NCBI GenBank assembly: GCA_963769885.1
Contig: CAVYNH010000005.1
Location: 1 to 64,000, forward strand
Source of the DNA: Methanobacteriota archaeon
GTDB taxonomy: Archaea; Thermoplasmatota; E2; DHVEG-1
Reading direction: 5' to 3'
DNA length: 64,000 nucleotides
The notes beneath the pieces are model-generated. The model had not been told where the DNA came from. It did not search any database and worked only from the letters and a program-made list of their open reading frames with translations. A program made the position numbers and the translations under genes. Of this stretch, positions 3,181 to 22,736 are shown piece by piece (the first letter of the stretch is position 1; every line of letters starts with the position of its first letter).

Positions 3181-3341
3181 CCAAATCTATGGTTTCAGTT
3201 TTGTGTTAATAAGTTAATAAAACGAACATTTTATACTACTTCTAATTTAAAAAAGCAACAAAAAAATTGATGAGAATAACGACAAAAATTGGCAAAAATT
3301 GTCAAAAATTGGCATTTTCAATATTCCCCTCCAGATCTCCA

Positions 3342-4200: not shown

Positions 4201-4278
4201 ATCCCGTTGCAATTTTTCATTATTGAGATTAAAGTTATCCTCTTTCGTAGTCTCACTCCAGACGTTAAATGTTTTATC

Positions 4279-4464
4279 TCATTCCCTCACTTCTCCCCTT
4301 AAAAATCGATTTAACTCTGATTGGAGAATCCTCCAACCATTTCCTACTTTGATGGCTTTGATTCTTCCCTGGTGGATACATTTCAGGAAGGTGGGTTTGG
4401 AGATTTTCAAATATTTGATCGCTTCATTAGTTGTTAGAACCAAATCTTTTTCCGTTAAATACAT
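4279..4464 (-). CDS. Excisionase-like helix-turn-helix (HTH_17) DNA-binding protein
   Basis: LTTNEAIKYLKISKPTF...GRIKAIKVGNGWRI. ATG at 4464 has a GGAG RBS and lies downstream of a sigma-54 promoter. Confidence 0.85.
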   Translation of the reverse strand: MYLTEKDLVLTTNEAIKYLKISKPTFLKCIHQGRIKAIKVGNGWRILQSELNRFLRGEVRE

Positions 4465-4503
4465 CCAATTGACTCCGTTTTTTTTGGTTTTCACCAATTT
4501 AAC

Positions 4504-4519
4504 AGCAAAACATATGCCG
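4504..4519 (-). promoter_or_regulatory. Sigma-54 (-24/-12) promoter
   Basis: Minus strand CGGCATATGTTTTGCT: GG-N10-GC ending in TTGCT. Confidence 0.65.
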
Positions 4520-4865
4520 AAAATAAAAACATAGGTTTTTATTTTCTAATAATTTAATTTTTAAGTATAAATTTGAATTTCTAATCAGTATTGAAAATGA
4601 AGAAAATGAAGCGTATCTTACGTTTAAGAACAATTTTTGTTCAAAATTGATAAATATTCACATATATTCAATTTGATTTTAAAGCCGATTTTTGATAGAA
4701 ATGACTATCGAGGACCTATGTATGAAACCTATGAAAATATTGGTGGTCGATGATGAAGCCCCCGTTCGAGAGATACTCCAAAGAGGTCTTACTCGGTAAC
4801 GTCAAAAAAGTCATGAAAAACCACTCTGAAGAATACGGAAAGAAAAAGGAAACCCTCCCCCTCGA

Positions 4866-5056
4866 GGGGCTGTGTCACAATGAGGGGAATCCCATTTTTG
4901 TCATTCTGAACCCTTCGCCATGTGTCACCCTGAGCAAAGCGAAGGGTCTCGGTTTTCGGCTCAGGGTAAACTCCGTGAAGAATCTCATAGAATCAATAAG
5001 TTAGAAAACAGAGATTCTTCGGCTAACGCCTCAGAATGACATTGTGACACAGTCTC
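4866..5056. mobile_element. Nested MITE with G(A/G)G(A/G)CTGTGTCA terminal inverted repeats
   Basis: GGGGCTGTGTCACAATG ... CATTGTGACACAGTCTC, inserted in the loop of a CCTCCCCCT/GGGGAGAGGGG palindrome. Confidence 0.75.
4899..5041. repeat. REP-like palindromic element (TGTCATTCTGA...GAAGAATCT...AGATTCTTC...TCAGAATGACA)
   Basis: Nested inverted repeats visible directly, plus an inner GTCACCCTGAGC...GCTCAGGGT unit. Confidence 0.7.
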
Positions 5057-5237
5057 CAAGGGGAGAGGGGGAGGCAACTTTTGACAATACATCTTACTCA
5101 AATGGGAGGGTTCTCTGTCGAAGTTGCCCAAAACGGCCAAGAGGCGATTGAAAAGATCGAAAAGGATGTCTTCGACTTAGTATTAACCGACCTGAGGATC
5201 CGACCCAAATCTGTCATGCTTCAACCCCCCTCCCACT

Positions 5238-5316
5238 GAGACTGTGTCATAATCAACGAAAGGCTATTTCCGTTTCCATCTTAAACTCCTCTCCACCATC
5301 ATTACGACACAGTCTC
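5238..5316. mobile_element. 79-bp MITE with 16-bp TIRs and a 3-bp TSD (ACT)
   Basis: GAGACTGTGTCATAAT ... ATTACGACACAGTCTC flanked by ACT on both sides. Same TIR family as 4866-5056. Confidence 0.8.
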
Positions 5317-5317
5317 A

Positions 5318-7139
5318 CTTCTGAGAGGAAGAATAATCCTAAAGATCGTTCCCTTCCCAGGCTCACTTTCAAAATCGATATGGCCACCCAATTTCTCCAC
5401 AATGTCTTTGGAAATGGAGAGACCGAGTCCCAACCCTTTCTCGGGAACCACCCTTGCTCGTAAAGAAAGGCTCGAAGATACGAGAGTGTACTTCCAATGG
5501 AATCCCAGCCCCTTGATCAGTAATGGAGAGGATTAAAGTCCTTATCTTCAACCTCTGTCGTTATTCTGACTACCCCATCGCGCGGTGAGGCTTCAATAGC
5601 ATTCAGAAGAATATTATATAATACCTGCCTCAGTGAACCCTCAGGCATTTCCATGGTTATGGGTTTGGAATCAATCTCGATGGTGATATTATTTCCCCGC
5701 CAGGCAGCTTCCAGCAGTGCAACCACCTCATAGATGGTCTTATCAACTGGAAACTCTTTTTTTATTTCCTGTTCCGGTCGGTAAACGTCGAACATTTGAC
5801 GCACAATGCGTGCGATCCGATTAATCTCTGTCTCGATGCGGCCGACGTATCCATAGTAAGGATGGTCCTGGGGAATAGCGTCCTTTACCAGCAGGAACGA
5901 GTTTTTAATCCCTGCCAGTGGATTATTGATCTCATGGGCGATCCGGGCAGCCATCAGACCTGCGGCAGCTAATTTTTCAATCTCGGTTCGCTGAAGTTCC
6001 AATTCCCGAATCTTTTGGGTGCGTTCTTCCACTATCTCCTCAAGGCGTTCCTCGTGTTTTTTCAATTCCTCCTCCGCCCGCTTGCGCTCAGTAATTTCTT
6101 TTTGTAAATCTTTATTGATAGCTTCAAGTTGTGCCGTGCGTTCAATAACGCGTCGTTCCAGCTCTTCATTCAGCTTTTTGATCTCATCTTCTGCCCTCCT
6201 ACGCTCGGTGATGTCTCGAACCACACTCACCCAACCGATGCGGCTGTCTTGTTCGTCTCCGAGTGGAGCCACGCTGTGCTCTGTGGGGATGACTGTCCCG
6301 TCCTTCCGCTTCATCCAGAACTCAAACAGATGCAGAAAACCACGCTCGAATATGGTTGAGTAGAGATGTCGCTGGAACTCTTTTAGTGCTGCTTCATCAA
6401 CATGCAAAAAATCCGTCGTCTGGCCTACCATTTCCTGGCGAGTGTAGCCAAAGATCTCCGTGGCGGCTGGGTTGCAATCTAAGATCGTGGGCGGATTGAT
6501 CGCATCCAACAGGAAGATCGCATCCCGTTGGCTAATGAAGGTCTTCTCAAATAACTCCTTGGACTCTTTTAGAGCCTCCTCCGCTCGCTTCCGCTCAGTG
6601 ATGTCGCGAGCGATTCCAAATTCTCCTATCACTTCTCCTTTTTCAATATTCGGGACGCTTTTGAACTCCCCAATGAGATACTCGCCAGACTTCGAGAGAA
6701 TACGTAATTCATAGGAAGGAGGTGTTTCCCCACGCAAAACCTGCTGAAATGTTTCCATAGCGAGAGTCAAATCGTCAGGATGTACAAGGGACTCGAACGG
6801 TTTACCAAGCCATTCAGCCCTTGACCAACCCGTAATCCTTTCAAACGCAGGATTCAGTGATGCAATCATTCCATCTCCAGCGGAAAGACTGTAGATAACT
6901 TCAGGTGCGGTTTCAACGAGACGGCGATACCGTTCCTCGCTCTCTCGCAGTGCCTCCTCTGCTCGCTTGCGGTCCACAGCCAACTGGTGGGCCTCCACGG
7001 CCCGCTGGGCAACCACCGGCAGCCGCTGCAGGTAGCCCTCGCCTTTGACCATGTAGTCATAGGCCCCTCTCTTCATCGCCTCTACCGCCACCCCCTCGTC
7101 CCCACGGCCAGTCACCATCACCACCGAGGGCGGGGCTTC
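5318..7139 (-). pseudogene. REC(partial)-PAS-PAS-coiled coil-HisKA-HATPase sensor kinase, 5'-truncated and doubly frameshifted
   Basis: ORF 5517-7124 has a partial receiver, two PAS/PAC domains and AHEINNPL. The HATPase continues in other frames (TDQGAGIP...FFTSK, then [16 protein letters not shown]) with shifts near 5541 and 5437. Confidence 0.85.
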
Positions 7140-7699
7140 ATGGCATCCCGAAAAAACCCCTCGTGTTGTATGCAGGGAGGATGAACCAGGAGAAAAACGT
7201 GGATGTCCTCATCAAAGCAATACCCACGGTTCTTAAAAGCATCGATGTGCATTTTCTCTTTGTCGGGTCGGGAAGTCTGAAGAACCGGATGATGAGCCTG
7301 ACAAAAACCCTTGGCGTCTCTGGCCATACCACGTTCGTGGATTTCTTGGATTGGCAGGACTATCCCAAAGTGTTCGCGTTACCGGACGTGTTTGTCATGC
7401 CTGGGGAATCAGAACTGCAGAGCATCGTGACGCTCGAGGCGATCGCCTCCGGCGTCCCAGCCGTGGTGTCGAACAAAGGAGCGGTCCGAGAACTCGTCTC
7501 AAACGAAAATGGTCTGGTGTTCGAGCCGCAGGACAGTGATCATCTCGCGGCTCAGCTAGTGCGGATATTGAGTGACGATCAGCTCCGGGCATTGATGAAG
7601 CAGCGGTGCGTGCAGCTCAGCCAGTCGCATGCGATGAGTGCGGTCGCGGCGCAGTTCGAAGAGGTGTACGCAAAAGTCACCGGCTCAAAAACGACATGA
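7139..7699 (+). CDS. Glycosyltransferase family 4, C-terminal half (5'-truncated at the junction)
   Basis: HGIPKKPLVLYAGRMNQEKN...DVFVMPGESELQSIVTLEAIASGVP (E-x7-E motif). Confidence 0.85.
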   Translation, partial: HGIPKKPLVLYAGRMNQEKNVDVLIKAIPTVLKSIDVHFLFVGSGSLKNRMMSLTKTLGVSGHTTFVDFLDWQDYPKVFALPDVFVMPGESELQSIVTLEAIASGVPAVVSNKGAVRELVSNENGLVFEPQDSDHLAAQLVRILSDDQLRALMKQRCVQLSQSHAMSAVAAQFEEVYAKVTGSKTT

Positions 7700-7916: not shown

Positions 7917-9341
7917 TCACTGCCTCTTCTTCGTATAGAGCAAGACCACGAGGAAGACGACGGCGAGTACGACGATGGCTGCGATGAGGAGGAGCCAGGG
8001 GAAGCCGGCAGCGGTGGTTTGTGGTTCCTGGAGGGTGAAGGTGCCGCTGGCGGGGTTATAGAAGTAGGTGCCGTTCGCGGTGAAGGTGTAGGTGCCGTCC
8101 GCGAGTCGATGGACGGGGGTCGTGGTGCGGCTGGTGTTGCTGTAGAAGGTGTCGAGGATCCCGTCATCGTTGGCGTCGTAGAGGCAGCCGAGGCTGCCGA
8201 GGAAGGTGACGTTAATGTAGACCGTGGCCTCACCCGGCGATGAGAGATTGATGTTGTCGGTGGCGGTGGCTGTAATGGTGTACCGGCCTGCGAAAGTCCA
8301 GGTATGAGAGATGATGTACGGCGTTCTGTCAGCTAGGAAGTCGCTGGTATTGTGGGTGCCGTCGCCCCAGTTGACGGTGTATTGGAGTGGATAGTTTTCG
8401 GTGTCGATGGATGTGATGCTGAAAGTGTATGCGTGACGTTTCGTTCCTTCGCTGGGTCCGATGATGGACGGTCTGGCTGGTGGTTGGTTGACGGTGATAA
8501 TCTGGATGGTGGTGTTGTAAGTTCCGGTTTTACCGCCATTGTCTGTAACGGTGAGATGTACAATGTAGTTGCCAGTAGTGTGGTATGTGTGATTGGTAAT
8601 GGGTCCGGTGCCGGTAGTGGTGTCGCCGAAGTCCCAGGCGTAGGAAGTGATATGGCCGTCAGGGTCATAGCTATGGGTAGCATCGAAGGTGACGGTGACA
8701 TTGACGATGTCGATGGTCTGGGTGGTAATGAAGGCGGTGGGGGGTTGATTCTCTGAAGTGCCACCACCTCCGTTGCCTCCACCTCCGCCGCCTGTGGTGC
8801 CGCCGTTGCAGACGATGGTGTAGAGTTGTGGCTTGATGGCGGGGCAGGGGAAGGAGTAGCTGGACTGGGTGCGCATGTTTTGCAGGACGGTGCCGTTCAT
8901 GGTACAAAGAGTGATGTTCTTGTATTCAGTGTTCGTGAGGTTTGCGGGGTTCCAAGTGAGGGTGACCGTGGTGGGGCTGGCGTAGTCGGCGGGGATCCAT
9001 TGGATGGTGAGGTTCCAGGTTTTGTCAGTGTCTGGGCCGTGTCGGTAGTCTTTCCAGAGCTGGGTGTAGGGGATGGGGAGGTGGTCGCTAAAGGTGAGTC
9101 GGAGGTACGGGGTGAACGGTGGGGGAGGTACGGCGATGTCATAGTGATCCGGTGGGAGGCCGTCGTTGGCGTCGGCGGCTTCGCCGAAGGTGGCGGTGTC
9201 GCCGTGGTTTGTGGTGTTTTCGGTGGCGGTGAGGGTGCAGCTCCAGGGGATGGCTGAGGCTGCTCGGGTGGTCGTGGTGGTGGTGAGGGCGGCTGCCGTG
9301 AGGAGGATGATGCCGAGAAGGAGGATCGTGGTTTTTGTCAA
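7917..9341 (-). CDS. Membrane-anchored surface protein: signal peptide, shared module X, Gly linker, 2 PKD domains, C-terminal TM
   Basis: Hydrophobic N-terminus. DTATFGEAADANDG module. PKD motifs WDFGD and VNWGDG. C-terminal TM followed by KKRQ. Confidence 0.85.
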   Translation of the reverse strand: MTKTTILLLGIILLTAAALTTTTTTRAASAIPWSCTLTATENTTNHGDTATFGEAADANDGLPPDHYDIAVPPPPFTPYLRLTFSDHLPIPYTQLWKDYRHGPDTDKTWNLTIQWIPADYASPTTVTLTWNPANLTNTEYKNITLCTMNGTVLQNMRTQSSYSFPCPAIKPQLYTIVCNGGTTGGGGGGNGGGGTSENQPPTAFITTQTIDIVNVTVTFDATHSYDPDGHITSYAWDFGDTTTGTGPITNHTYHTTGNYIVHLTVTDNGGKTGTYNTTIQIITVNQPPARPSIIGPSEGTKRHAYTFSITSIDTENYPLQYTVNWGDGTHNTSDFLADRTPYIISHTWTFAGRYTITATATDNINLSSPGEATVYINVTFLGSLGCLYDANDDGILDTFYSNTSRTTTPVHRLADGTYTFTANGTYFYNPASGTFTLQEPQTTAAGFPWLLLIAAIVVLAVVFLVVLLYTKKRQ

Positions 9342-9478
9342 GGGGTGGACCTCTGTGGGGTTTGTAGGGGGTTGGTACTTATCTTTTTTTCCTTAGGGGG
9401 GTGGTTTCGGTGAGGAAAGGAAGATGCCAAGGATGGCGCTTTTTTAGTCATCCTTGGGTTCTGCGTACGAGGTACGGT

Positions 9479-12370
9479 TTAGGCTCGTTTGAGTTCGCAG
9501 GGCTGGTAGGCGTAGATCCAGATGCTGGTGCCGGGGCTGAGGGTGGTGATCATCTCGTAGGCTTGGGTGCTGCGTTGCCAGTCGAAGAGGTCTTTCATGA
9601 CGAGCGGGGACCCGTAGGCGTTGTCGGTGGAGGTGGCCTGTGCCCAGGTGTATTCCACGCCGAGGTAGCGGACGACGAGGCTGACCTTGTCGACAGGTAG
9701 GGTGTAGGGGATGCCGAAGGCGTTCCAGCCGATGGTCAGTGGCGTGATGTAGGTGTCGGTGACCATGGGGTTGAGGTTGGTCGCCCAGATCTCGCAGTCG
9801 GCGTAGGCGTACATCCAGTAGCCGCGGCCGGCCTTCAGGGTGCCGGTGAGGCTGTAGTTCTGGGTTGTGCGTAGCCAGTCGTAGAGCGTGTCCATGACGA
9901 TGTGGTCGGTGACCGCTGTTGCCCAGGTTTTTCGTTGTCCGCCGACGATCACGTAGAGATTGACCTTGGTAATGGTCTGGTTGAAGGGTAGCGAGAAGTA
10001 GTTCCAGCCAGTGACCGCGTTCGTGATGCATAACTCGGAGTAGATGGTGAAGTGGTTGGTGGCGCTGGTGACGCGGTTGTTGCTGGTGTCCCGGACCCAG
10101 ATCGTGAAGTTGTAGGTGCCGGTGTAGCCGTAGGTCGTAACGTTGAAGTAGACGTCGCCGCCGTCACGGACTAGGGAGACGTTGACGGGCGTGAATCCGG
10201 CGGGGCCGTCGACGCTGACCCGCTCCTCCTGCAGCATGACGTTGTCGGTGATGGTCGCGGAGAGGGTGACCGGCTGGCCGACAAGCTGGGAGGAGGGCGT
10301 GGCGACGATGAGGCTGATCTGCGGGAACTCGTCATCGAAAACGGTGATGGCCCTGGGGTCGTTGGTCCGGGTGTTAGGAACGCTGTCGTAGGCGGAGACC
10401 GTGTAGGTGTGGCCGGTGATGTTGTTGTTGGGCGCGATGTAGACGTACTCCCAGCGCAGCGTGGTCGTGTTCCAGGTCATGGCATGGCCGGTGGCGTCGA
10501 TGGTCGCGGTGGCACCGACGACGGCGATGTTGTCGGTGGCCTGCAGCCAGAGCGTGACGTTATTGCCGGTGCCGACGGTGACGGCCGTGGAGTTCGCGGT
10601 AATGGTCGGGGCGTCATCGTCGCTGACGGTGATCGTGTAGAGGTAGCTCCTCGTCGTATAGGCGGCGTCGCTGACGAAGACGCGGTAGGTGTGTGGCAGT
10701 GTGCTGCTGGTTGGGGCGACGAAGGTATACTCGTATCGTCCCCCATTCAAGGTCATCGTGTGGTTGACGCCGTCGACGAGGGCGTCGACTGCGGTGATCG
10801 CGATGTTCTCGGTAGCCTGGACCCAGAGGATTTCCGAGTTGCCTGTCCCGGTGGAGATGTTGTCGGAGGTGCCGGTGATGACAGGCGGGTCGTCATCCAC
10901 AACCGTGATTGTGAATGTCGCGGTACTGGCGGTGTTTGGCACGGCATCAGCTAGCGTCATCGAGTAGGTGTGGCTGGCTGTACTCCCGGATGGGACTTGA
11001 TAAAGATATTCCCAGCGGAGCGTGGTCGTGTTCCAGGTCATGTCATGCGGTGTGCTGTCTATCGTCACCACCCCGGAGACGACCGCGATGTTATCCGTGC
11101 CTTGAACCCAGAGGACTTCCTGGTTCCCGGTCCCGGTGGAGATTGCGGTGGAGGAGGCACTGATCTGAGGCGCGTCGTCATCATAGAGCGTGATCGTGTA
11201 TAGACTGCTAGTCTTGGTGTTTAATGCGCTGTCCGAGAGGCTGACGGTGTAGGAGACTGGGTCGAGGCTATTGGCTGGCGTGGTGTAGTCGTACTCCCAA
11301 CGGGAGCTGGCTCCGATCCAGGTCATCGCATAGTCTGTGATCCCGATGGTCGCCTTGGCGCTGGTCACCTGGATGTTGTCGATGCCTTGTACCCAGAGCG
11401 TAACCACGTCGTTCGTTCCTGCATCCATATCTCCGGAGGCTCCGGTGATGGTCGGTGCCTCGTCGTCGATGACAGTGGCATGAATGGCTGAGGTGTAGAT
11501 CGAATTTGGGATCTTGGCGCTGTCGATAGCGTAGATATGATAGATGATGTCGCTAACGGTGTAGTTGTCCAGGGTGACGGTCTTGGTGAAGGTGTTGTCG
11601 CTGCCAGTGTAAGTGAGCGTGTCGTTGCCAGCGTGACTACCGTGGGCCCAGTTGACTTTCGCTGTGATCTGCTCCGGCGGTGCGATATTGTCGGTGATGT
11701 TAACGTTGAATGTGAAGGAGTCACCGGTTTCGCCGCTTGCGGGGGAATGGTTGATGATCACGGGGGGTGCTTGGTCGACGATGCAGCGGATCCTGAAGTT
11801 CTGGAGCGTGACCGCGGGGCAGGTGAAGGTGTAATGGTCCGTCGTCCTCATGTCGACGAGGGGCGTGCCGTCGGTTTTGTATAAGTAGACGTAATCGTAT
11901 TCACTGAGTCCGATGCTTGCGGTGCTCCAGGTGAGAGTAACGCTCGCTGGGGAGGAGTAGTCGTCAGGGACCCATTGGACGGTGAGGTTCCAGATGGTGG
12001 TGAGGCCTTGGTAGTGGCGGTAGTCTTTCCAGAGTTGGTTGTGGGGGGTGGGGAGGCTGTCGTTGAGGAAAATGCAGACATAGGGCGGGATGGGGGCCGG
12101 CGGTTTGGCGACATCGTAGGCGTCTGGAGGTGGGCCGCCGTGCGCATCGACTGCTTCGCCGAAGGTCGCGGTGTCGGTTTTCCCGCTTGCTGTCGCGGTG
12201 AGAACAGCATCCCAGGATGCGTCTCTGCCTTCGGATCCTTTACTCTGCGGGGTTGGTCCGAGGGAGAGGGTGGCGGAGGCGACGAGGCAGAGGGAAAGAA
12301 GGAAGAGCGCTAGGATGATGAGCGCTCCCGGGATAGAGTTGTCCCTTGCAAGTCCTCGCCGCATCGGCAA
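9479..12370 (-). CDS. Large secreted protein: module X, about 6 Ig-like repeats (DDxxP), 2 C-terminal GWN...PGxGYW modules
   Basis: Signal peptide. DTATFGEAVDAHGG. ~95-aa repeats with LWVQxTDNI/DDDAP. Tandem GWNYFSLP...GRGYWMYAY. No TM anchor. Confidence 0.85.
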   Translation of the reverse strand: MPMRRGLARDNSIPGALIILALFLLSLCLVASATLSLGPTPQSKGSEGRDASWDAVLTATASGKTDTATFGEAVDAHGGPPPDAYDVAKPPAPIPPYVCIFLNDSLPTPHNQLWKDYRHYQGLTTIWNLTVQWVPDDYSSPASVTLTWSTASIGLSEYDYVYLYKTDGTPLVDMRTTDHYTFTCPAVTLQNFRIRCIVDQAPPVIINHSPASGETGDSFTFNVNITDNIAPPEQITAKVNWAHGSHAGNDTLTYTGSDNTFTKTVTLDNYTVSDIIYHIYAIDSAKIPNSIYTSAIHATVIDDEAPTITGASGDMDAGTNDVVTLWVQGIDNIQVTSAKATIGITDYAMTWIGASSRWEYDYTTPANSLDPVSYTVSLSDSALNTKTSSLYTITLYDDDAPQISASSTAISTGTGNQEVLWVQGTDNIAVVSGVVTIDSTPHDMTWNTTTLRWEYLYQVPSGSTASHTYSMTLADAVPNTASTATFTITVVDDDPPVITGTSDNISTGTGNSEILWVQATENIAITAVDALVDGVNHTMTLNGGRYEYTFVAPTSSTLPHTYRVFVSDAAYTTRSYLYTITVSDDDAPTITANSTAVTVGTGNNVTLWLQATDNIAVVGATATIDATGHAMTWNTTTLRWEYVYIAPNNNITGHTYTVSAYDSVPNTRTNDPRAITVFDDEFPQISLIVATPSSQLVGQPVTLSATITDNVMLQEERVSVDGPAGFTPVNVSLVRDGGDVYFNVTTYGYTGTYNFTIWVRDTSNNRVTSATNHFTIYSELCITNAVTGWNYFSLPFNQTITKVNLYVIVGGQRKTWATAVTDHIVMDTLYDWLRTTQNYSLTGTLKAGRGYWMYAYADCEIWATNLNPMVTDTYITPLTIGWNAFGIPYTLPVDKVSLVVRYLGVEYTWAQATSTDNAYGSPLVMKDLFDWQRSTQAYEMITTLSPGTSIWIYAYQPCELKRA

Positions 12371-15300
12371 TCATCGCTCCAAGTGGCAGTCGACGTACGA
12401 ATACATCCAGTAGCCTTCTCCGGGGGTAAAGTGGTCCGGCATGGTGTATTGTTGGATCGCGCGGTCCCAGCCGTAGATGACGCCGAGGATGTAGTGGTTC
12501 GAGACCGCGGTGTTCCAGGCGTATCGGGTTCCACCGTAGTTGACGTAGAGCGGGAGCGTGGCGGGGTAGACGGTGGTGTCTGTCGGGACGCCCATCATAC
12601 TCCAGAGGTGCAGGTTCGTGACGGAGCCGCTCCAGACTGCGTTGCTGGGGAAGCGGAGGGTGACTGGTTCATAAGCCCAGACCCAGTAGGCTTCTCCGGG
12701 CGTGAACGTGGTCACTGGCGTCGGGCTGTATTGCTGTGTGGACCGATCCCAGCTGTAGACGCGGTCCATGACCTTCCCGTCATCGTGGGCTTGGGCCCAT
12801 GAGTGGTTGACGCCGCCGTAGCGGACGATGATGTCCGCCTTGTTGATTGGCGCGTCGCAGGGGTTTGAAACCAGATTCCAGTATTGGGCGAGTGCGGTGT
12901 TGTGGAGCCCGATGACTGTAATCAGGATGACCGCGGGGTCGGAGATCAGGCCGTCGTTGTCGGTGACGGTGAAGGTGAAGTTGTCTCTTGCGGCGTATCC
13001 TAAAGCTGGGATGTAGTAGAGGCTCGGGGTTGTTATAGTTGGGACAGCGGTTATCTGAGACCCGCCGAGTGTCCAGAGGGTCCCGTGCGATGGCAGCTGG
13101 GTGACTGTGTAGGTAGTGACGGTGCCATCGGCATCTGTTCCACTAAGGGCAATCGAGGTGTTGTATTCCTGGTATGTGGTGATGCTCTGTGGTGCCGCGA
13201 CGGGCGGGTTTACGCAACAGCTGACCTTGAAATGTACGATGCTTCCATCAGGGACCGCTAAGGCAGTATAGCTTCCTGCGACCATCATGTTGGCGAGAAC
13301 TGTATTCGTGGCATCCAGAAATTGGATACGTGTGTACTCGCTGGTGGTGATTGCGCTCCAGGTGATGGTGATGTCATGGGTGCCGGCGTCATCGAAGAAG
13401 ACCTGGGTGTAGATGTCGTAGACGAGGGAGCCGTGGAGGAACTTCCGGTAGTCCTTAAAGAGCCGGGTATAGGGTGCTGCGAGGCCGGCGTTGCTCCAGG
13501 CGGAGATGAAGGGAGCTGGCGGGTTTGAGGGTTTGGGGATGTCTGAGGCGTCCGCGCCGTCTTGGGCCGCGACTTTTTCACCGATGACCACGTAGTCCGT
13601 GCAGCTTCCGCTGCTGAAGTAGAGGGTCGTTTCCCAGTCAGCGGTAGGGATGTACGGTGAGAAGAGGACGTTTCCGGTCACATGGTCGCCAGTCCCAAGC
13701 ATCAATCCAGTGTTGGGCCCGGTGGAGCTTCCCCAATAATTGTACCTAGCATCGAGCTGGGTCGGCCCGTTCCAGATGAGCCCGGCGCCGTTGTCCTTGA
13801 ATACGTTGTAATGGATTATAGTTCCGATGGGGTAGGCCGTGCTCCCGCCGCTGAACCCGTTTGTCCCTAGGAAGCTCTTATCGCAACCGGTGATGGTATT
13901 CTGCAGAATCATGGTGTCTGTGACGTACCCAGAGAGCCGAATCGCGAAGCTTGAGGGTGTCGTGGAGACCCCGGTGATGACGTTGCCTTTGATAACGGTG
14001 TTGGAGATTTCACCGTTATGCCCGTCGCCCCAGGCGAAGTTGTCTATTGCGATGCCTCGCTCGAGCGGTTGAACGTTGGTGATGATATTGTCGCTGATGA
14101 CGACGTTCGAGTAGGTCCCAGTATCCGTCGGATCACCCAAGAAATAGCCCTTCCAAGCGCCGGAGAAGCTAATGCCAGTGACCGGCGTCGCATGCGAAAC
14201 AGTATGGACGTCGATCGTGTTGTTGCTGATCTTCTGCAGGCTGGTGATGTTGACGTCATCGTAGGTCATGTAATAGATGGCATCACCCGCGTTGCTGCAG
14301 GTACCCAGCGTGTTGTAGCTGATGTCGGTTGACCCCGGGTTTGTCTCCACGAGGATACTGTTCCCACTGATCTGTGTGAGAATATTATACTGGAAGACGA
14401 CATGTTCTTGGCCGCCGTTAAGGTAGAGCCCGTAGTCTTCTGAATCTAAGGGATTGTTCTGTCCGATGATCTTGTTGTAGGTGATGGTGTAGGTCGCTGA
14501 AGAGGAGCTGGATGCAGCGAAGATACCGATGTTGGTTTTGCCATCGCCGCCATCGCCGCCATTCAGCGGTCCGCCGGCGTTCTGGACCGTGAACCCGGTG
14601 AAGACGACGTTGCCGGTCGCGACGATCCGGATTAACCCCCCAGCAGTAAGGGTGGCGTCACTGCCATCAATAATCGTACTTGCCCAGCCTGCACCCTGAA
14701 TCGTGAGCGCCTTGTTGATGGTTATCTGGCTTTCATGGTATGTCCCGGCAGCGACCTGGATGGTGTGGCCATCGAGGGTAGCAGGGTCGTCAATAGCGTC
14801 TTGAATCTTATAATAGATCTTCCCTGTGTTTGTGTTCTTGATTGGTCCATTTGCGAAATAAATGGCGCTTGTTAATTCAGCGGCAACCTCGGTACAGAAA
14901 TACGAATTCCAGGGATCGTACCAACCGCCACAGGTATGTTGAGTGGACGCGATCCAGTTATAGGCTTGGTTTATGATTGCCTGATACGCCGTTCTATTGT
15001 AGTTCGCGAGGCTCATGACTGCATAGGCGGTGGACTGCCAGTCCCAATCATCAGTATGACAGCCATAGCAATAGCTGAATGCTCCTGGGGTCGCGGGTCC
15101 GGTATATCGGCATTCTAGGAGAGTCGTTATCAGATTTGGTATCTTGTCAGTGTGGGAGTTTGAATACGCGAACGCATCAATCAAGCCTGAGATGCCCAGG
15201 GTGTACCACCAATAATCCTCGACATTATAATCAGGATCCCAACCTGCACAGCGGTCCAAGTCAAAATACCGCAGTCCTGTCCCGTAGGTGTCCTGGTACA

Positions 15301-16117
15301 TGACATCTGCTATGGCGATGGCATCCGCCGCATAAGTGCCACCATACCGAACTCCCAACATCTGGGCTACGCGTGCCCAAGGAGCAATGTTCCATGGGAT
15401 GATACCATTGTCATACCCCTGATTATGGCGCCTATTGAGAATGGCGGTGGCCAGCGCGCCTGCCGTTCCATTTGAGGCAATCGCGGCATCGTACTTCGCC
15501 TTAGCAGCATCCTTATACGTGGTTCCCGTGACTCCGGGGAGATCGTTGTATAACATGAGGAAGATAAGGTCGTTTCCGGTTCGAATCCCAGAGTCTCCAA
15601 CCATATAATCAGCTGCGTCTTTCATCGCGACTTTATAGGAGGAAACCGGGTCCGCCAGATAGGCATAATACAGTCCTAGGGCTGTCACTCCATAGGTGTT
15701 CTCTGGACTGGGCGCGGAAGTGTGGACGTATTCGCCACTTAGAAGCGTCCAATCCCAGCCACCATCCTCTGGATCTGCAGGAATCTCTGTCGTTCCAGGG
15801 TACCCATTTCCTGCATTATCCTCCGTGATATCTGCCTGCGAATGCCTCAGATAATCTGCCCCTTTCGACAGGGCATCGCTCAAATCAAAGCTAGGGTTCT
15901 GTGGGGGTGCATATCCAGCTTTTTTAACCTGCGGTGTCAGCAACCAGTCGGTGCAATCACTGGAGGGTGTTAGCCCGGGGTGATGAATAGTCTTTTGCTT
16001 ACTTGAGTTTGTAAGGTTCCCCGCGGTCGCCATCGGCAAAAACACCATGGCACACATCGTGACTGCGACAAACGCAGCGAGCAGCTTTTTCTGTTGGTTT
16101 CCTTCCTCTTTTCCCAT
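12371..16117 (-). CDS. Large secreted multidomain protein: (alpha/alpha)-toroid-like domain, right-handed beta-helix, module X, Ig/cadherin-like domain, 2 C-terminal WN...PGxGYW modules
   Basis: Signal peptide. DGGWDW and QHTCGGW resemble prenyltransferase/squalene-cyclase repeats. IQDAID...GTYHE and I.xN.I beta-helix repeats. DYVVIGE...QDG..SDIPKP is module X. Confidence 0.8.
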   Translation of the reverse strand: MGKEEGNQQKKLLAAFVAVTMCAMVFLPMATAGNLTNSSKQKTIHHPGLTPSSDCTDWLLTPQVKKAGYAPPQNPSFDLSDALSKGADYLRHSQADITEDNAGNGYPGTTEIPADPEDGGWDWTLLSGEYVHTSAPSPENTYGVTALGLYYAYLADPVSSYKVAMKDAADYMVGDSGIRTGNDLIFLMLYNDLPGVTGTTYKDAAKAKYDAAIASNGTAGALATAILNRRHNQGYDNGIIPWNIAPWARVAQMLGVRYGGTYAADAIAIADVMYQDTYGTGLRYFDLDRCAGWDPDYNVEDYWWYTLGISGLIDAFAYSNSHTDKIPNLITTLLECRYTGPATPGAFSYCYGCHTDDWDWQSTAYAVMSLANYNRTAYQAIINQAYNWIASTQHTCGGWYDPWNSYFCTEVAAELTSAIYFANGPIKNTNTGKIYYKIQDAIDDPATLDGHTIQVAAGTYHESQITINKALTIQGAGWASTIIDGSDATLTAGGLIRIVATGNVVFTGFTVQNAGGPLNGGDGGDGKTNIGIFAASSSSSATYTITYNKIIGQNNPLDSEDYGLYLNGGQEHVVFQYNILTQISGNSILVETNPGSTDISYNTLGTCSNAGDAIYYMTYDDVNITSLQKISNNTIDVHTVSHATPVTGISFSGAWKGYFLGDPTDTGTYSNVVISDNIITNVQPLERGIAIDNFAWGDGHNGEISNTVIKGNVITGVSTTPSSFAIRLSGYVTDTMILQNTITGCDKSFLGTNGFSGGSTAYPIGTIIHYNVFKDNGAGLIWNGPTQLDARYNYWGSSTGPNTGLMLGTGDHVTGNVLFSPYIPTADWETTLYFSSGSCTDYVVIGEKVAAQDGADASDIPKPSNPPAPFISAWSNAGLAAPYTRLFKDYRKFLHGSLVYDIYTQVFFDDAGTHDITITWSAITTSEYTRIQFLDATNTVLANMMVAGSYTALAVPDGSIVHFKVSCCVNPPVAAPQSITTYQEYNTSIALSGTDADGTVTTYTVTQLPSHGTLWTLGGSQITAVPTITTPSLYYIPALGYAARDNFTFTVTDNDGLISDPAVILITVIGLHNTALAQYWNLVSNPCDAPINKADIIVRYGGVNHSWAQAHDDGKVMDRVYSWDRSTQQYSPTPVTTFTPGEAYWVWAYEPVTLRFPSNAVWSGSVTNLHLWSMMGVPTDTTVYPATLPLYVNYGGTRYAWNTAVSNHYILGVIYGWDRAIQQYTMPDHFTPGEGYWMYSYVDCHLER

Positions 16118-16138
16118 ATCGTTGTTTCCTCCTTCTTC

Positions 16139-18784
16139 CTAGAAAATCTTCCAAACGTTGAGTTGCACAGATTTTTGATTCTCGTCATTATCATACGCAA
16201 TGATTTTGAGGATGCAGGGGAAGATCGTCCGCTGGGTCCATGGCCATTCGTACGGCGACGACGTATCGTTCAGCATCAGGTCACCATTGAGATAGAACTC
16301 GACGCGGTTGACACCGGACTGATTATCAGTGGCATTGACTTTGACTGTGAGGTGCCCCCAGACGACCGTCACCGGGAACGGGAAGACGATTTCTCGTATC
16401 CCGAAGAAGTTAAGATAGAAGAATCCCGATAGTGGCTGGGTGATTCGCACGTTCGGCGGGATCGAGTCCACCTGGGTCGTAAACGACCATAGCTCGCTGG
16501 CATTCCTGTTGTTGTAACTGTCCCAGGCGACGATCTTCCAGAAATACTGGGTCGAAAACGTCAGCGTCCCCGGGTCGAAGCTCGTCCCCGTCTGATTATG
16601 GATGGCGAGCGTCGGAGATGACGATGTCCCGAAATAGACGTCGTACTTGACCGGGTCGCCTTCGGGGTCGCCGCCGGTCCAGCTCAGATTCGTGGTGACC
16701 AACACATTGGTTTCGCCGTTAGATGGATTAGGACTAGAGGGCGCATATGGGGGCAGGTTCACGACCGTGGTAAATGACCACAAGGGGCCATACGTCCGGT
16801 TGTGATGGGTATCCCAGGCGGTGATTTTCCAATAATAGTGTGTCGAATAGTTCATGGTTCCTGGGTCGTATGTCGTTAATGTCTGGTTGTGGACTACGAG
16901 CGGGGGAGTGCTCGTGGTTCCGAAGTAGACGTCATAGGTCACGGAGTCGCTGGGGTCAGGGTCGCCGCCGGTCCAGTTCAGATCATTGGTGATGGGGACG
17001 TTGATTGAGCCATCCGCCGGGCCAGGATGATTCGGGACGTATGGGGCTCGGTCTTTGGTGGTGAAGAACCAGGTCGTCCCATTCGTACGGCCACCGTACC
17101 CATCCCGCGCTGTGATATGCCAATAGTAGACGGTGTTGTAGAGGAGGCTTGCAGGTGGGTCGTACGACGTTCCGGTCTGGTTATGAGAGACGATAGGGGG
17201 ATTAGGCGAAGTCCCAAAGTAGACATCGTACAGGACAGCATCACCATCAGGGTCGCCACCGGTCCAGGAGAGCGTCGCGTCGACTGAGACGTTCACCGCG
17301 CCGTTCGTCGGCGATGGCGACGAGGGGGTGTTGGGAGGCCGGTTGAGGGTGGTGAACGACCAGGTGGGGCCCGCAGCGCTGTAGCCGTGGTTGTCCCAGG
17401 CCTTGATGCGCCAGTAGTAGGCCTTATGAGGCAGCAGGCTCCCGGGGGCGTACGCCAACGCGCTTTGGTTATGGATGACGAGCGGGGGGGTCGTTGAATT
17501 CCCGAAGTACACGTCGTAGGTGACGGTGTCGCCGGGGTTGGGGTCTCCGCCGAGCCAGCTCAGAATCGGAGTCAGTGAGACGCCGGTCGCGCCGTTCCCC
17601 GGGTTGGGCGTGTTCGGCGTGTACGGCGCGGATTCAAGATGAGTCGTGAAGTGCCAGATGGGGCCAGCGGTTCGGCTGTTGTGGTTGTCCCAGGCGACGA
17701 TCTTCCAGTAATAAATCGTGTTGAAGGCGAGCGTGGGCGCGTACGTCAATGCCGTTTGGTTATGGACGAGGAGAGGGGGGTTGGTAGCAGTCCCGAAGTA
17801 CACGTCGTACGTCACGGTGTTCCCAGGGTCAGGGTCGCCGCCAAGCCATGAGAGGGTTTTGTTGAGTGGGACATCGATCGTTCCGTTGGCTGGGGAAGGA
17901 GTGTTGGGTGTGTAGGGCGGGTGGTTGCCGTAGGTGGTGAACCACCAGGACGGACCGCTGGTCCGCCAGTGGTGGACATCCCAGGCGACGATCCGCCAAT
18001 GGTACATCTGGAATTGATAGAGCGTGGGACTGTAGGTTGTTGCCGTCTGGTTGTGGACGATGAGCGGGGGTGTGGTGGTGTTCCCGAAGTAGACGTCGAA
18101 GGTCAGGGGATCGCCATCTGGGTCCGTGGCGGTCCAACTCATGGTGGTATTGAGGGGGAGGTCCAGGGATTCATTGGCTGGGCTCGGTGTCGACGGGGCG
18201 GCCGGGGCGTGGTTGACGTGACAGACGACCTTGAAGCGCTGGATGGCGATGGCAGGGCAGGCGAAGGAGTAGCTGGACTGGGTGCGCATATTGCAGAGGG
18301 AGCCGCCGCCCCAGGTACAGAGGGTAACGATGCTGTACTCGGAGGCGTTGACGCGGCTACGGTCCCAGGAGAGGGTGACGGTGGTGGGGCTGGCGCTGTC
18401 GGCAGGCCACCATTGGACCGAGATGTTCCAGGTCTTGCTCGTGCCGGGGTAGTGGCGGTAGTCATTCCACAGGGCGCTGTAGGGGATGGTGAGGTTGTCG
18501 CTGGACCAGAGGCGCAGGTAGGGGGGCATGGGGAAGGGTGGTTTAGCGACGTCGTAGCTGTCTTCGGGGGGGCCGTCGCGGGCATCTGGTGCCTCACCGA
18601 AGACGACGGTGTCTGTGATGGTGCCGGTCTCGCGGCCGGTGATGATGACGTCCCAGGTAATGCCGCGGTGGGAGGAGGTGGTTTTGCCGGGGCTCACGAA
18701 AGCGGTCCCGATGCCCGAGGTGAGCCCAAGGCTAAAAACAATAAATAGAGCGATGGCTACGTCTTGTGTACGCGTCCTTTCCAT
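16139..18784 (-). CDS. Secreted protein: module X, six FnIII/Ig-like repeats, C-terminal Ig domain
   Basis: Repeat unit PxxPSPxNG...LSWxGGDPD...YDVYFG...HNQT...YYWKIxAWD...WSFTT x6. C-terminal ATDNQSGVNRVEFYLNG (Big-like). Confidence 0.85.
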   Translation of the reverse strand: MERTRTQDVAIALFIVFSLGLTSGIGTAFVSPGKTTSSHRGITWDVIITGRETGTITDTVVFGEAPDARDGPPEDSYDVAKPPFPMPPYLRLWSSDNLTIPYSALWNDYRHYPGTSKTWNISVQWWPADSASPTTVTLSWDRSRVNASEYSIVTLCTWGGGSLCNMRTQSSYSFACPAIAIQRFKVVCHVNHAPAAPSTPSPANESLDLPLNTTMSWTATDPDGDPLTFDVYFGNTTTPPLIVHNQTATTYSPTLYQFQMYHWRIVAWDVHHWRTSGPSWWFTTYGNHPPYTPNTPSPANGTIDVPLNKTLSWLGGDPDPGNTVTYDVYFGTATNPPLLVHNQTALTYAPTLAFNTIYYWKIVAWDNHNSRTAGPIWHFTTHLESAPYTPNTPNPGNGATGVSLTPILSWLGGDPNPGDTVTYDVYFGNSTTPPLVIHNQSALAYAPGSLLPHKAYYWRIKAWDNHGYSAAGPTWSFTTLNRPPNTPSSPSPTNGAVNVSVDATLSWTGGDPDGDAVLYDVYFGTSPNPPIVSHNQTGTSYDPPASLLYNTVYYWHITARDGYGGRTNGTTWFFTTKDRAPYVPNHPGPADGSINVPITNDLNWTGGDPDPSDSVTYDVYFGTTSTPPLVVHNQTLTTYDPGTMNYSTHYYWKITAWDTHHNRTYGPLWSFTTVVNLPPYAPSSPNPSNGETNVLVTTNLSWTGGDPEGDPVKYDVYFGTSSSPTLAIHNQTGTSFDPGTLTFSTQYFWKIVAWDSYNNRNASELWSFTTQVDSIPPNVRITQPLSGFFYLNFFGIREIVFPFPVTVVWGHLTVKVNATDNQSGVNRVEFYLNGDLMLNDTSSPYEWPWTQRTIFPCILKIIAYDNDENQKSVQLNVWKIF

Positions 18785-18827
18785 GAATAGTTCCCCCGAT
18801 GGATGATGCCAAACATAAGGAATTACC

Positions 18828-18860
18828 TTATCGTTTAATAATCTTTTTATATAACGATAA
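18828..18860 (-). promoter_or_regulatory. TATA box flanked by the inverted repeat TTATCGTT-N17-AACGATAA, upstream of the surface-protein operon
   Basis: Perfect 8-bp IR enclosing minus-strand TATATAAAAA, about 60 nt upstream of the ATG at 18784. Confidence 0.5.
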
Positions 18861-19237
18861 AAATCATTTTTGAGGAACTCTTGCGCTGTTTTTGAAGAAA
18901 ATTTGTATAAAAAGAAAGGGTTAAGGTGGAGGAATTCTCCTGATAGGCCACATTTGTTTTAATTAAACCGTCCGGGGTCGCGTCTTATCGGAAATTGTCA
19001 CGGGATTATTTTTATATATAAAAATAGAAAAAAACCAGGCTGAAATATCGTGCCGAACCAATTATCGTCAAAAAAAGACGCGCAAAAAAAGAAGAAAAAA
19101 AGGGGACGCCGAACAAATCAGATGAATTTGGTTTATTTGACCCAGCCGAACCCCTGTTCGACGATGTTCGCCCGCTCATATGTCCACTCCGGCAGCCGCC
19201 GTAGGCAATCCATCACGGACTCCGGAGCCTGATTCTG

Positions 19238-19441
19238 CTACACCGCCTCACCCCGACACCGGAGCCGACCCGTGCACTCCAACACGATTTGCCCACTCGA
19301 CTCTCGCCAGGGAATCTGCGACGAATCAGGTTCACAGAACATTCGCACCCAATATGATCCCGCGCTAATTGCATCCTGCTCCACGGTCACATTGAACGAG
19401 GCAAACCCATGCACCGAATCATATTTCAGCAAATAGGTGAA
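19238..19441 (-). pseudogene. Remnant of a class I (bacterial-type) glyceraldehyde-3-phosphate dehydrogenase NAD-binding domain
   Basis: FTYLLKYDSVHG...EPDSSQIPWRESSGQIVLECTG matches the LKYDSVHG...LPW..LGV..V.E.TG signature. No N-terminus and an early TAG. Confidence 0.65.
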
Positions 19442-19493
19442 ATCCCTATTTTCCTTGTATTGAATACTGATGAAAATACCACTGTAAAACGAC

Positions 19494-20996
19494 TTAGGCA
19501 GCCTTCTGCAGAGACTGCAGGCGGGCCATGGAGGACTGGAGGGCTTCGTCCATGTCCGAAAATCCGATGCTCACCCAGCTCGAGCCGTCGTCGCGGAGGA
19601 GCTCCTCGAGCGGGAACCGGCCGTCCCAGGGTTCCCAGGACTGCTGCAGGGTCATCTCGCCGAGCACCCGGATGTTCGTCGCGCCGCAGGCGCCCATCGC
19701 CTTGGCAAAGGGAAGAAGGCGCGGAATCGGAATCGCCACCCCAATTGTCTGTAAGAACCGATGCAATGGCTTAACCAGCATCGGGATTTCTTCGAGATCA
19801 GCGATGGGTTTGACGGTGATCGCACGGAACTGGGGAGACGGCTCGACGGGATCCGTCGTCTCATCGTAGACGACGAGATATTCATGAGATTGCGGAGCGT
19901 ACAGGTGTACAAGGGCACCCAGTATCTGTTTTTTCAAGGCCTCCTGGTAGCCTTCGAGGATGCTGATCTTGCCTGTTTTGGCTCCTTTCGGTAAAATCGT
20001 CGCCATCGTCTGTAGTTCCCTGGCGAGGAGCTCAGCGAACTCCTTGGGGGAGGTCTTGGCTTTGTTTTCGACAAAGACGACCTGGGGAGAGAAGCACCCC
20101 TGCTGGTCCCAGGCGCTGACGTCAAGGGCCGCGAGGCGCGCCACGAGCTGAGCCTGATCGACGAGGTAGTCTCGTGCGATGGCGATGAAGCTGAATTTAT
20201 GCCAATGCCCGGCCAAGGGGGTTTTGCAGGATTCCGCGAGTTTCGTCAGACTATGCCGGGCGATCTCGCCGCCGGTGGCGCGGACGAGGTCGGAGCGGCG
20301 GAAGAGGTAGTCATGGAGGTCGGCCTGGGACGAGTCGAAGGGGAGGACGGCGATGGTGTGGGCGAGGTCCGGGTCGAGGCTTTCCAGGGATTGGGCGAAG
20401 AGGGCGGCGAAGACCGGCTCCTCGGTGGACGGCTTGATCCAGGTGGCGGCGTCGACGAGCTTGTCCATAATCATCTCGACGGCGGGGAGCCCGACGATGT
20501 TGCCGGCGCAGATGTGTCCGATGAGTTTGGGCTGGTCGTTAGCGTAGTATTCAGGGGTTTTCCCGGCGGCTTTCACGTAGCCGGTGCAGTATGGTGTGAA
20601 CTCGTGGTAGCGGCGGGGGTCGAGGCGTCCGGTGAGGGGGAGGTTGCGGGGGTTGAGGGTCTGGAGGAAGACGTTGAAGCCCCATTCTTCGATCATCTGG
20701 TGTGAGTAGCCGGTGATGGGGGGGAGGATGTCGTGGGCGAGGCGGCGCCAGGGGGAGTCGGGGTCGGTCCATTGGGTGATGAGGTCCATGACGGTGTCGA
20801 AGATGTCGGGGAGGCTGTGGGAGCAGAGGTAGTCGGTGCGGTGTTGTTCGAGGGTGGCGAGGATCGGGGTGAGGGTGTCAGGGGTGAGGATGGGGCGGCG
20901 GAGGGTGATGTGGTCGGTGATGTCGGCGTAGGTGTAGTTGAGGCTGTCACAGGTGAGGTCGGGGTCCCAGAAGTGGCAGTCGATGGTGGTGGTCAT
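19494..20996 (-). CDS. luxC: LuxC-family acyl-CoA/acyl-protein reductase
   Basis: ALDH-like fold: HICAGN, KPSTEEP, ATGGE, and catalytic Cys motif WDQQGCFSPQ (LuxC DQQACFS), LQTIG, PWDG. Confidence 0.85.
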   Translation of the reverse strand: MTTTIDCHFWDPDLTCDSLNYTYADITDHITLRRPILTPDTLTPILATLEQHRTDYLCSHSLPDIFDTVMDLITQWTDPDSPWRRLAHDILPPITGYSHQMIEEWGFNVFLQTLNPRNLPLTGRLDPRRYHEFTPYCTGYVKAAGKTPEYYANDQPKLIGHICAGNIVGLPAVEMIMDKLVDAATWIKPSTEEPVFAALFAQSLESLDPDLAHTIAVLPFDSSQADLHDYLFRRSDLVRATGGEIARHSLTKLAESCKTPLAGHWHKFSFIAIARDYLVDQAQLVARLAALDVSAWDQQGCFSPQVVFVENKAKTSPKEFAELLARELQTMATILPKGAKTGKISILEGYQEALKKQILGALVHLYAPQSHEYLVVYDETTDPVEPSPQFRAITVKPIADLEEIPMLVKPLHRFLQTIGVAIPIPRLLPFAKAMGACGATNIRVLGEMTLQQSWEPWDGRFPLEELLRDDGSSWVSIGFSDMDEALQSSMARLQSLQKAA

Positions 20997-21400
20997 TGGG
21001 TGTCCTCAAATTCCGTGGGGATGCGGGCGGCGGTGGTGACGAGTTCTTGGGCGGCGTGGGCGTAGTCTATGATCTTGCGGGAGTCGCCGGTGACGGTGAG
21101 GTAGCCGCGGACGATGGCGCGGAGGGGGTCGAGGGTGCCGAGGAGGATTTGTTTCCAGGTGGTGTAGGGGCCGGTGAGGGTGAAGTCCGTTTGTTGGTTG
21201 GTGGTGATGAGGCGGGCGTTGCGGCAGGTGCCATGCCAGAGGTCGAGGTAGATTTTGATTTCATGGGGGTAGGCGGTGTCGGGGGTGATGATGAAGAGGA
21301 AGTCGCCTTCCCAGTCTTTGGCTTTAGCTTTGTAGTCGGGGTTGTCGTTGAGGGCGTGTTGGAAGGCTTTGACCCAGGCGTCGCTGGGGAAGGGAATCAT
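20993..21400 (-). CDS. SCP2 sterol/lipid-binding domain protein (135 aa)
   Basis: MIPFPSDAWVKAFQHALN...WEGDF...LWHGTC...GPYTTWKQILLGTLDPLRAIVRGYLTVTGD. True start is 21400 (ATGA overlaps at both ends). Confidence 0.85.
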   Translation of the reverse strand: MIPFPSDAWVKAFQHALNDNPDYKAKAKDWEGDFLFIITPDTAYPHEIKIYLDLWHGTCRNARLITTNQQTDFTLTGPYTTWKQILLGTLDPLRAIVRGYLTVTGDSRKIIDYAHAAQELVTTAARIPTEFEDTQ

Positions 21401-22731: not shown

Positions 22732-22736
22732 TGCGG

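Follow-up and report, generated by a model that had tools for sequence, protein, structure and literature searches.

Cohesin–dockerin assemblies include cellulosomes as well as non-cellulosomal complexes, archaeal ones among them. The MSCRAMM-type adhesins of Gram-positive bacteria combine an N-terminal ligand-binding head with a C-terminal anchor. Many uncultured Thermoplasmatota are without a rigid wall, and to our knowledge almost nothing is known about how their surface proteins are built and held. The subject of the present work is a cluster of four genes (positions 7917–18784, minus strand) in a 64,000-nucleotide stretch of DNA, called the window below, from an archaeon of the phylum Thermoplasmatota; an earlier note made from the sequence had also assigned the genes to an archaeon. 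Each product carries one copy of a domain designated here as X. The cluster is a lineage-specific, recurring set of surface-protein genes marked by a new β-sandwich head domain, and it probably encodes a multi-part structure of the cell surface.

WxL clusters, found in Firmicutes, encode a small and a large protein with a domain in common, alongside a partner anchored by a transmembrane (TM) helix (PMC10599100). The products of these WxL/WxLIP (Csc-type) clusters are thought to form one surface complex (Hassan, Chaudhuri and Williamson 2023, PMC10599100). The X clusters likewise pair small, domain-only forms with large forms and add a member whose C-terminus carries a TM helix. The likeness is one of layout and not of homology, and no Pfam match to WxL, DUF916 or DUF3324 was found in any cluster protein. 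Unlike WxL, which is C-terminal, X is N-terminal, and it sits on the TM-anchored proteins themselves. Since the host is an archaeon without peptidoglycan, the ligand of X must differ from that of WxL.

The layout of MSCRAMM adhesins is also approached, as X proteins consist of a signal peptide, an N-terminal head, a stalk of repeats and a C-terminal anchor or sorting signal. In contrast to those adhesins, the same head is found on all members of a cluster, forms exist in which the head alone is placed on a TM helix, and the fold and sequence of X are different.

Four genes with one shared domain

Four neighbouring, co-oriented open reading frames (ORFs) are located on the minus strand of the window, with intergenic gaps of 21, 0 and 137 nucleotides in the order of transcription. 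On inspection of the sequence all four N-termini resemble signal peptides (a basic stretch followed by a hydrophobic one), and X aligns across the four translations. The earlier note's description of four co-oriented genes for secreted proteins, each with one X, is thereby borne out, and the coordinates it had given for X lie within ~25 nucleotides of those found. Every product of the cluster is an exported modular surface protein; the products are probably glycosylated. A reading of the proteins as type IV pilins was rejected, the N-termini being ordinary signal peptides and not class III ones.

Gene 1 (16139–18784) encodes P0001 (881 residues), in which the signal peptide is followed by X (residues 38–192; 18209–18673), six FN3/Ig-like repeats of ~97 residues ending in FTT, and a C-terminal Big_7 domain ending in VWKIF; the Pfam domains recognised in this translation are Ig_Rha78A_N, Big_5 and Big_7. 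The product of gene 2 (12371–16117; P0002, 1248 residues; translation and Pfam scan) comprises a signal peptide, an alpha-toroid-like region, a beta-helix-like region, an internal X of a divergent type (residues 822–975; 13193–13654), a Big_9 domain and a tandem pair of repeats named GYW, which is described below. Gene 3 (9479–12370) is translated into P0003 (963 residues), with a signal peptide, X (residues 48–203; 11762–12229), five to six beta repeats of ~95 residues without Pfam assignment and, again, a tandem GYW pair. In P0004 (474 residues), encoded by gene 4 (7917–9341; translation and Pfam scan), the signal peptide and X (residues 28–175; 8817–9260) precede a Gly-rich linker, two PKD domains, a region of ~70 residues, the motif GFPW, a TM helix and a KKRQ tail.

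The C-terminal anchor of gene 4 (GFPW, hydrophobic helix, YTKKRQ; 7920–8006, minus strand) was located by a hydrophobic scan. Among the four cluster proteins such a helix followed by KKRQ was detected in this one only, in agreement with the sole anchor that had been assigned to the last gene. The domains that had been listed next to X stand in part: the six FN3/Ig-like repeats and the two PKD domains are recovered, whereas the toroid of gene 2 is based on a weak match to SQHop_cyclase_C (E 6e-4) below the cut-off, and the beta-helix stretch of gene 2 gives no match in the Pfam scan, although related X proteins do match Beta_helix/NosD. A search of PDB sequence profiles with the full-length products of genes 2 and 3 returned no match at E ≤ 1.

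A single loop of the EF-hand/dockerin Ca2+-binding type, DANDDGILD, occurs at residues 389–397 of the gene 4 product (8151–8177, minus strand). It lies in the unassigned region of ~70 residues that connects the second PKD domain to the membrane anchor.

The four copies of X were delimited by alignment and by profile matches (E 1.8e-82 for copy 1, in gene 1), with BLASTP in addition for copy 2, in gene 2. Their pairwise identity is 33–56%, and the most divergent pair is recognised by BLASTP with E 2e-23, the value obtained for copy 2 against copy 1. On the strength of these figures the likeness among the four proteins is not due to chance. According to the profile search the source genome (2.09 Mb in 7 contigs, 92% complete) contains exactly four copies, all of them in this cluster.

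No catalogued family accounts for X. Pfam and NCBIfam gave no match to X in the four proteins, with the isolated domain at E ≤ 10, or in scans of 153 family members, and the best matches among PDB sequence profiles were two FN3 domains with E 0.09–0.15 over 45 positions. The earlier note had called the domain unassigned, and these searches agree. Descriptions of X or of the cluster were not found in the literature on dockerin, surface proteins, PKD domains and adhesion in Thermoplasmatota.

An AlphaFold2 model of X (copy 1), built from an alignment of 49 rows, is confident, with a predicted local distance difference test score (pLDDT) of 96.8 and a predicted template modelling score of 0.90. 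The modelled fold is all-beta, with ten strands packed as a sandwich, and residues 29–51 form a single long, ordered loop. Foldseek found zero matches in PDB at E ≤ 1e-3. Comparison by VIA with 48,161 PDB representatives gave a top Z of 5.6 and no clear structural relative, and VIA applied to the best 1000 chains of Foldseek gave a top Z of 5.5; as a guide, Z < 8 is common for unrelated beta-sandwiches. The highest-scoring structures are accessory beta-sandwiches of glycoside hydrolases (Z 4.0–5.6, within the noise range). These are the C-terminal domain of GH27, the N-terminal sugar-binding domain of GH2 and the N-terminal domains of GH94/GH161, with 80–125 residues aligned at a root-mean-square deviation of 3–4 Å. 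X shows no sequence similarity to these accessory domains, and the cluster is without a glycoside hydrolase domain. Significant matches to FN3 or Ig domains were likewise absent, and the ten strands in ~150 residues contrast with the seven strands of FN3. The earlier note had proposed comparing the fold with known domains; in Foldseek and VIA neither cohesins nor carbohydrate-binding modules (CBMs) nor pilins stood out. X is thus a real but uncatalogued domain, a ten-strand beta-sandwich of ~150 residues.

A look-up of X in the ESM Atlas returned unnamed bacterial clusters only. Two predicted phage proteins in BFVD (A0A8D9C8P8 and I1ZBD4) have a domain that resembles the X model marginally, with TMq of 0.60 and 0.65 and Foldseek E of 3e-3 and 8e-3, respectively. 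One of the two is annotated as 'putative hemin binding protein' of an uncultured marine phage.

In 183 full-length domains the residues W7 and W103 are invariant (100%), and G26, E27, A31, D38, D41, P64, L68, W82, Y113 and I149 are conserved in ≥95%. The most conserved part of X is a near-invariant acidic loop (FGEA-x-DA-x-DG-x3-D-x-YD), whose residues E27, D38 and D41 reach 98–99%. In view of this conservation, the loop is the signature of the X family. A Ca2+ site in this loop, which had been suggested by the earlier note from its Asp-rich composition, is plausible on the same residue pattern.

Distribution of X, the GYW pair and the recurring gene order

A profile search of 1.84 billion metagenome representatives yielded 587 X proteins at E ≤ 1e-3, of which 176 also reach E ≤ 1e-30, and the named records belong to Thermoplasmata or Thermoplasmatota metagenome-assembled genomes. 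Among 401 evenly sampled genomes of the phylum, X was detected in 14 of the 53 genomes of the window's own family, in 1 of 14 genomes of a second family and, weakly, in 1 of 9 genomes of a third. None was found in the remaining ~320 sampled genomes, where incompleteness leaves absence unproven. X is therefore almost confined to one family of Thermoplasmatota.

Domain architectures were compared in a pool made up of 150 listed representatives and the X-bearing ORFs from loci of related genomes (178 proteins at first, 197 later). In ~80% of copies X is the domain that directly follows the signal peptide; in the pool of 197 proteins, 164 of 207 domains begin no more than 135 residues from the N-terminus. 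The C-termini belong to a small number of recurring types. In the pool of 178 proteins, 36 end in the tandem GYW pair and at least 27 in a TM helix plus basic tail, where a PGF motif is clear in some; Big_7 ending in WKFF accounts for 15, and further types are helices marked FPxxFP (12) or RGEF (9) and dockerin (8). The alternative C-terminal modules of the relatives include dockerin, PGF-CTERM-like tails and amphipathic helices.

The Pfam partners of X are overwhelmingly non-catalytic and of the adhesin type: PKD, Big_9, cadherin-like, fn3, Flg_new_2 and Laminin_G_3. Some X proteins contain Beta_helix/NosD, Dockerin_1 is present in five, and Peptidase_C25 and Cohesin are single cases; the Cohesin match came from the whole-protein scan of one family member, and the X regions scanned gave none. 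The earlier note had proposed that X assembles spacer and enzyme-like subunits; in this survey nearly all partner domains are such non-catalytic repeats and not enzymes.

Some X proteins hold two or three copies (P0005, P0006, P0008–P0010 and P0016; loci L028, L029 and L041). The patterns include tandem X-X and an X with a GYW pair followed by another X ~30 residues on. The latter looks like two neighbouring genes of a cluster that were fused or read through.

The GYW unit is a repeat of ~80 residues with the motif W-N-x-x-S-x-P ... Y-x-W ... Q-x-Y ... P-G-x-G-Y-W-x-Y-A-Y-x-x-C. In the X family it nearly always occurs as a tandem pair, usually at the extreme C-terminus, which is its position both in gene 2 (12374–12892, minus strand) and in gene 3 (9482–10018, minus strand; alignment). 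The AlphaFold2 model of the pair is confident (pLDDT 93.9). Foldseek gave no match for its fold, the best Z against PDB was 2.7, Pfam and NCBIfam gave no match, and PDB sequence profiles returned nothing meaningful. The unit is unrelated to X (hhalign probability 0.3%). The GYW pair is a second new, uncatalogued domain family.

X is joined directly to a GYW pair by a linker of 2–10 residues in 18 proteins. Across the 53 genomes of the family, X and GYW are found together in 9, X only in 5, GYW only in 3 and neither in 36; because these genomes are related and not independent, the co-occurrence is only suggestive. The GYW pair is also present in cluster proteins without X.

The earlier note had asked whether X recurs in operons of other genomes or is scattered singly. 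Clusters of X genes do occur in many related genomes, in a recurring order and with the anchored members at the 3' end, and a manual tally of the match tables puts ~50 of the 57 copies found in multi-copy genomes no farther than ~10 kb from a further copy; a lone X gene in a closed genome departs from this picture. The order that recurs in at least five genera is X-Big_7, enzyme-like-X-GYW2, X-stalk-GYW2, short X-TM, long X-TM. A genome of the same genus (G001) has exactly the order of the window, namely X-Big_7, enzyme-like-X-GYW2, X-stalk-GYW2 and X-stalk-TM. In a genome of another genus (G314) the order is X-Big_7, X-helix, enzyme-like-X-GYW2, X-stalk-GYW2, short X-TM, long X-TM. Subsets with the order kept and the anchored members at the end were found in G021, G373, G244, G008 and G002, and the architecture of gene 2 is shared by G001, G314, G244 and G021. 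The recurrence of the order across genera speaks for a functional unit rather than recent duplication. Listing of the flanks of the relatives' loci turned up no conserved neighbour.

The short X-TM proteins (212–240 residues) consist of a signal peptide, X, a linker of ~20 residues and a TM helix, and nothing else. Their genes always adjoin a long X-TM gene, as was seen in G314, G373, G244, G008 and G021. The window cluster contains large X forms only and is missing the short X-TM form.

A tree of the X domains sets the internal copies of the gene 2 type apart as a clade (support of 98 in the Shimodaira–Hasegawa-like approximate likelihood ratio test), which, judging from this tree, is old. 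Resolution is poor among the N-terminal copies, which show a tendency to cluster according to lineage. With 14 of 28 inner branches below 80, their orthology by architecture was not resolved.

The closed genome G412 contains a single gene of the X-TM type (C1:1608439–1609561), and a GYW fragment interrupted by TAG lies just upstream of it. This locus looks like a decayed cluster.

Anchors and neighbouring genes

The tails of the long X-TM proteins (gene 4 and those of L025, L034, L035 and L038) consist of a PW/QW motif, a hydrophobic helix and a basic end similar to Y.YKKGYF, and those of the short X-TM proteins of P(F)LP, a helix and YKRKK. Their layout resembles sorting signals of the exosortase/archaeosortase type. 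The tail of gene 4 has this three-part layout but gave no match to the NCBIfam models of sorting signals (PGF-CTERM/archaeosortase). Certain members of the X family end in clear tails of PGF, helix and KRK. The source genome encodes a protein of the Exosortase_EpsH family, which is archaeosortase-like (G000:C6:432273–432986; L042), with 37 bits, above the Pfam cut-off. By its family assignment, this protein could process C-terminal signals of surface proteins.

The region upstream of gene 1 (18785–19140, minus strand), read directly, contains T-tracts past the LuxC operon and then AT-rich, TATA-like stretches. This arrangement would fit a separate transcription unit for the cluster. The neighbouring LuxC/LuxE/SCP2 operon, PAS histidine kinase gene and glycosyltransferase fragment revealed no link to the cluster. 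The last of these is an ORF of 178 residues (7163–7699, plus strand) whose only match is to the C-terminal half of a group-1 (GT4) glycosyltransferase; the usual N-terminal domain is missing. Located between the cluster and the gene of the PAS histidine kinase, it is probably a gene remnant.

The G+C content is 0.43–0.44 in positions 1–6000 of the window, which contain two-component genes, against 0.53–0.63 in positions 8000–24000. The surface cluster and the LuxC/LuxE operon show a strong positive GC skew. The contrast in G+C may result from strand or coding bias or from a different origin.

Possible roles of X

The reading that is tentatively preferred is that X is a putative association head, by which the products of a cluster are joined to each other through protein–protein contacts. 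It is ranked first because X is present on all products of a conserved multi-gene unit, because proteins exist in which X alone is placed on a TM helix, because X is repeatedly fused to the GYW pair, and because the WxL clusters give a precedent for the layout (PMC10599100). In this mechanism X, probably stabilised by Ca2+, would let the products of a given cluster bind one another, the partner of X being a second X or a GYW pair, and the anchorless products of genes 1–3 would be held on the membrane-anchored product of gene 4. In the relatives the base could be formed by the short signal-X-TM proteins together with the long X-stalk-TM proteins. The result would be a composite surface structure displaying adhesin-type repeats and an enzyme-like head of the beta-helix/toroid kind. 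The occurrence of minimal signal-X-TM proteins beside long X-TM genes implies that X by itself serves some function at the membrane, and by their composition the minimal proteins look like bases of the structure.

Several observations weigh against an association head. The anchorless proteins carry conserved modules of their own at the extreme C-terminus (the GYW pair and Big_7 ending in WKFF), and these are at least as good candidates, since they could retain the proteins without X. On stalked anchored proteins X is distal to the membrane, at the usual site of a ligand-binding tip. Single X genes are found in closed or good genomes (G412, the locus at 702 kb in G008, G016 and G018), so that X need not have a heterotypic partner. 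Clusters contain from 0 to 2 anchored members, and the single anchored member that the earlier note had expected in other loci is not general. The counts of co-occurrence come from related, non-independent genomes, and the grouping of N-terminal X by lineage fits duplication and shuffling as well as it fits co-evolution. Finally, Cohesin and Dockerin_1 domains are present in a few X proteins, apart from X according to the Pfam matches.

The comparison with cohesin systems, made by the earlier note under the name of cellulosome logic, can be followed some way: X is a beta-sandwich of ~150 residues with possible Ca2+ dependence, the subunits are modular, and an anchored holder is proposed. Unlike cellulosomes, the X clusters are without a scaffoldin bearing several receptors. 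The literal analogy is weak, because a few X proteins carry Cohesin or Dockerin_1 as domains apparently distinct from X and the domains carried along are mostly non-catalytic. Pfam Cohesin (PF00963) was not matched by X, whether in the four proteins, with the domain taken alone (E ≤ 10) or in those X regions of family members that were scanned. Cohesins are not among the top 50 of the 48,161 PDB representatives or in the Foldseek list, a result by which the fold is not excluded. A more specific and distinctly unlikely version of the association head is a new docking system of archaea, similar to cohesin–dockerin in role and unrelated in fold, in which X and the GYW pair would be the complementary parts. 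A C-terminal GYW pair would then bind the N-terminal X of a neighbouring protein, and X-stalk-GYW proteins would chain into head-to-tail heteropolymeric surface fibres, rooted on X-TM base subunits and capped by enzyme-like or Big_7 members.

Nearly as likely as the association head is that X is a Ca2+-dependent, CBM- or lectin-like head for an external polymer or the surface of a partner cell; the cluster would then encode adhesins and one enzyme-like protein directed to one target, each retained by its own C-terminal module. The position of ~80% of X domains directly after the signal peptide, and hence at the distal end of C-terminally anchored stalks, suits such a head, as do the adhesin-type partners (PKD, cadherin-like, fn3, Big_9 and Laminin_G_3) and the place of the gene 2 type of X after an enzyme-like region, where a CBM would be expected. 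The most conserved features of X are the acidic loop and several aromatics, and genomes with one copy are easily explained. Its best fold resemblance, although weak, is to the glycoside hydrolase accessory beta-sandwiches (Z 4–5.6), but no structural match rises above noise (Z < 8 throughout), and neither Pfam nor NCBIfam places X in a catalogued CBM family, nor does X match a lectin family in sequence. In addition, a minimal signal-X-TM protein would put X right at the membrane, which is odd for the capture of an external ligand, and this reading does not call for a conserved order of several genes whose products all bear X. X could instead bind the cell's own S-layer or membrane glycocalyx, in a role like that of the S-layer homology (SLH) or WxL domains, holding anchorless proteins on the cell while X-TM proteins tie the envelope to the membrane. 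One domain common to otherwise unrelated exported proteins is the classic pattern of wall binding, the minimal X-TM proteins suit a tie of this kind, and restriction to one archaeal family is expected for a lineage-specific envelope ligand. This attachment role is nevertheless unlikely: X is present in only 14 of 53 genomes of the family, so a core component of the envelope cannot be the ligand unless the ligand is equally patchy; TM-anchored proteins need no second attachment, and a candidate S-layer gene was not identified in this analysis.

Two further explanations receive still less weight. X may be a stable N-terminal 'starter' beta-sandwich without specific binding, and the cluster an array of paralogues for independent surface proteins that arose by tandem duplication and shuffling. 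The grouping of N-terminal X by lineage and not by architecture, the multi-X and possibly fused proteins as signs of frequent shuffling, and the patchy presence of X across genomes are in line with it. It is quite improbable in view of surface loops conserved beyond the needs of the fold (E27, D38 and D41 at 98–99%; W7 and W103 at 100%), of the recurrence of distinct architectures in one order across genera, and of the proteins in which X alone is placed on a TM helix. The polymerising role that the earlier note had also considered would correspond to a pilin-like X that polymerises through donor-strand exchange into a heteropolymeric fibre, in the manner of chaperone-usher pili or of archaeal bundling pili, threads and cannulae, and this is highly improbable. 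Operons with one beta-sandwich domain on every product are typical of pilus systems, and X has a weak fold likeness to CfaB/CfaE, to the bundling pilin of Pyrobaculum and to the cannula protein of Pyrodictium (Z 3.9–4.2). These Z values are at noise level, however, and the model of X is a complete, self-contained sandwich of ten strands (pLDDT >95) with no strand missing, with the reservation that a monomer model can self-complement. Moreover, the proteins are very large, their C-terminal modules are unrelated, and genes for a chaperone, an usher or pilus assembly are absent from the cluster, as are chaperone- or usher-like neighbours.

Clusters of genes for surface proteins that share one domain are a familiar kind; what is new here is two domain families. 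The cluster yields two domains, X and the GYW pair, that fold confidently and have no structural relatives, along with a gene order that recurs. The minimal anchored proteins with one domain are easy to express, so that the retention and assembly of anchorless archaeal surface proteins become directly testable. If X is a lectin-like head, a new family of binding domains would be defined. If X is a docking head, it would provide a new pair of parts for protein engineering and a new principle of assembly for archaeal envelopes.

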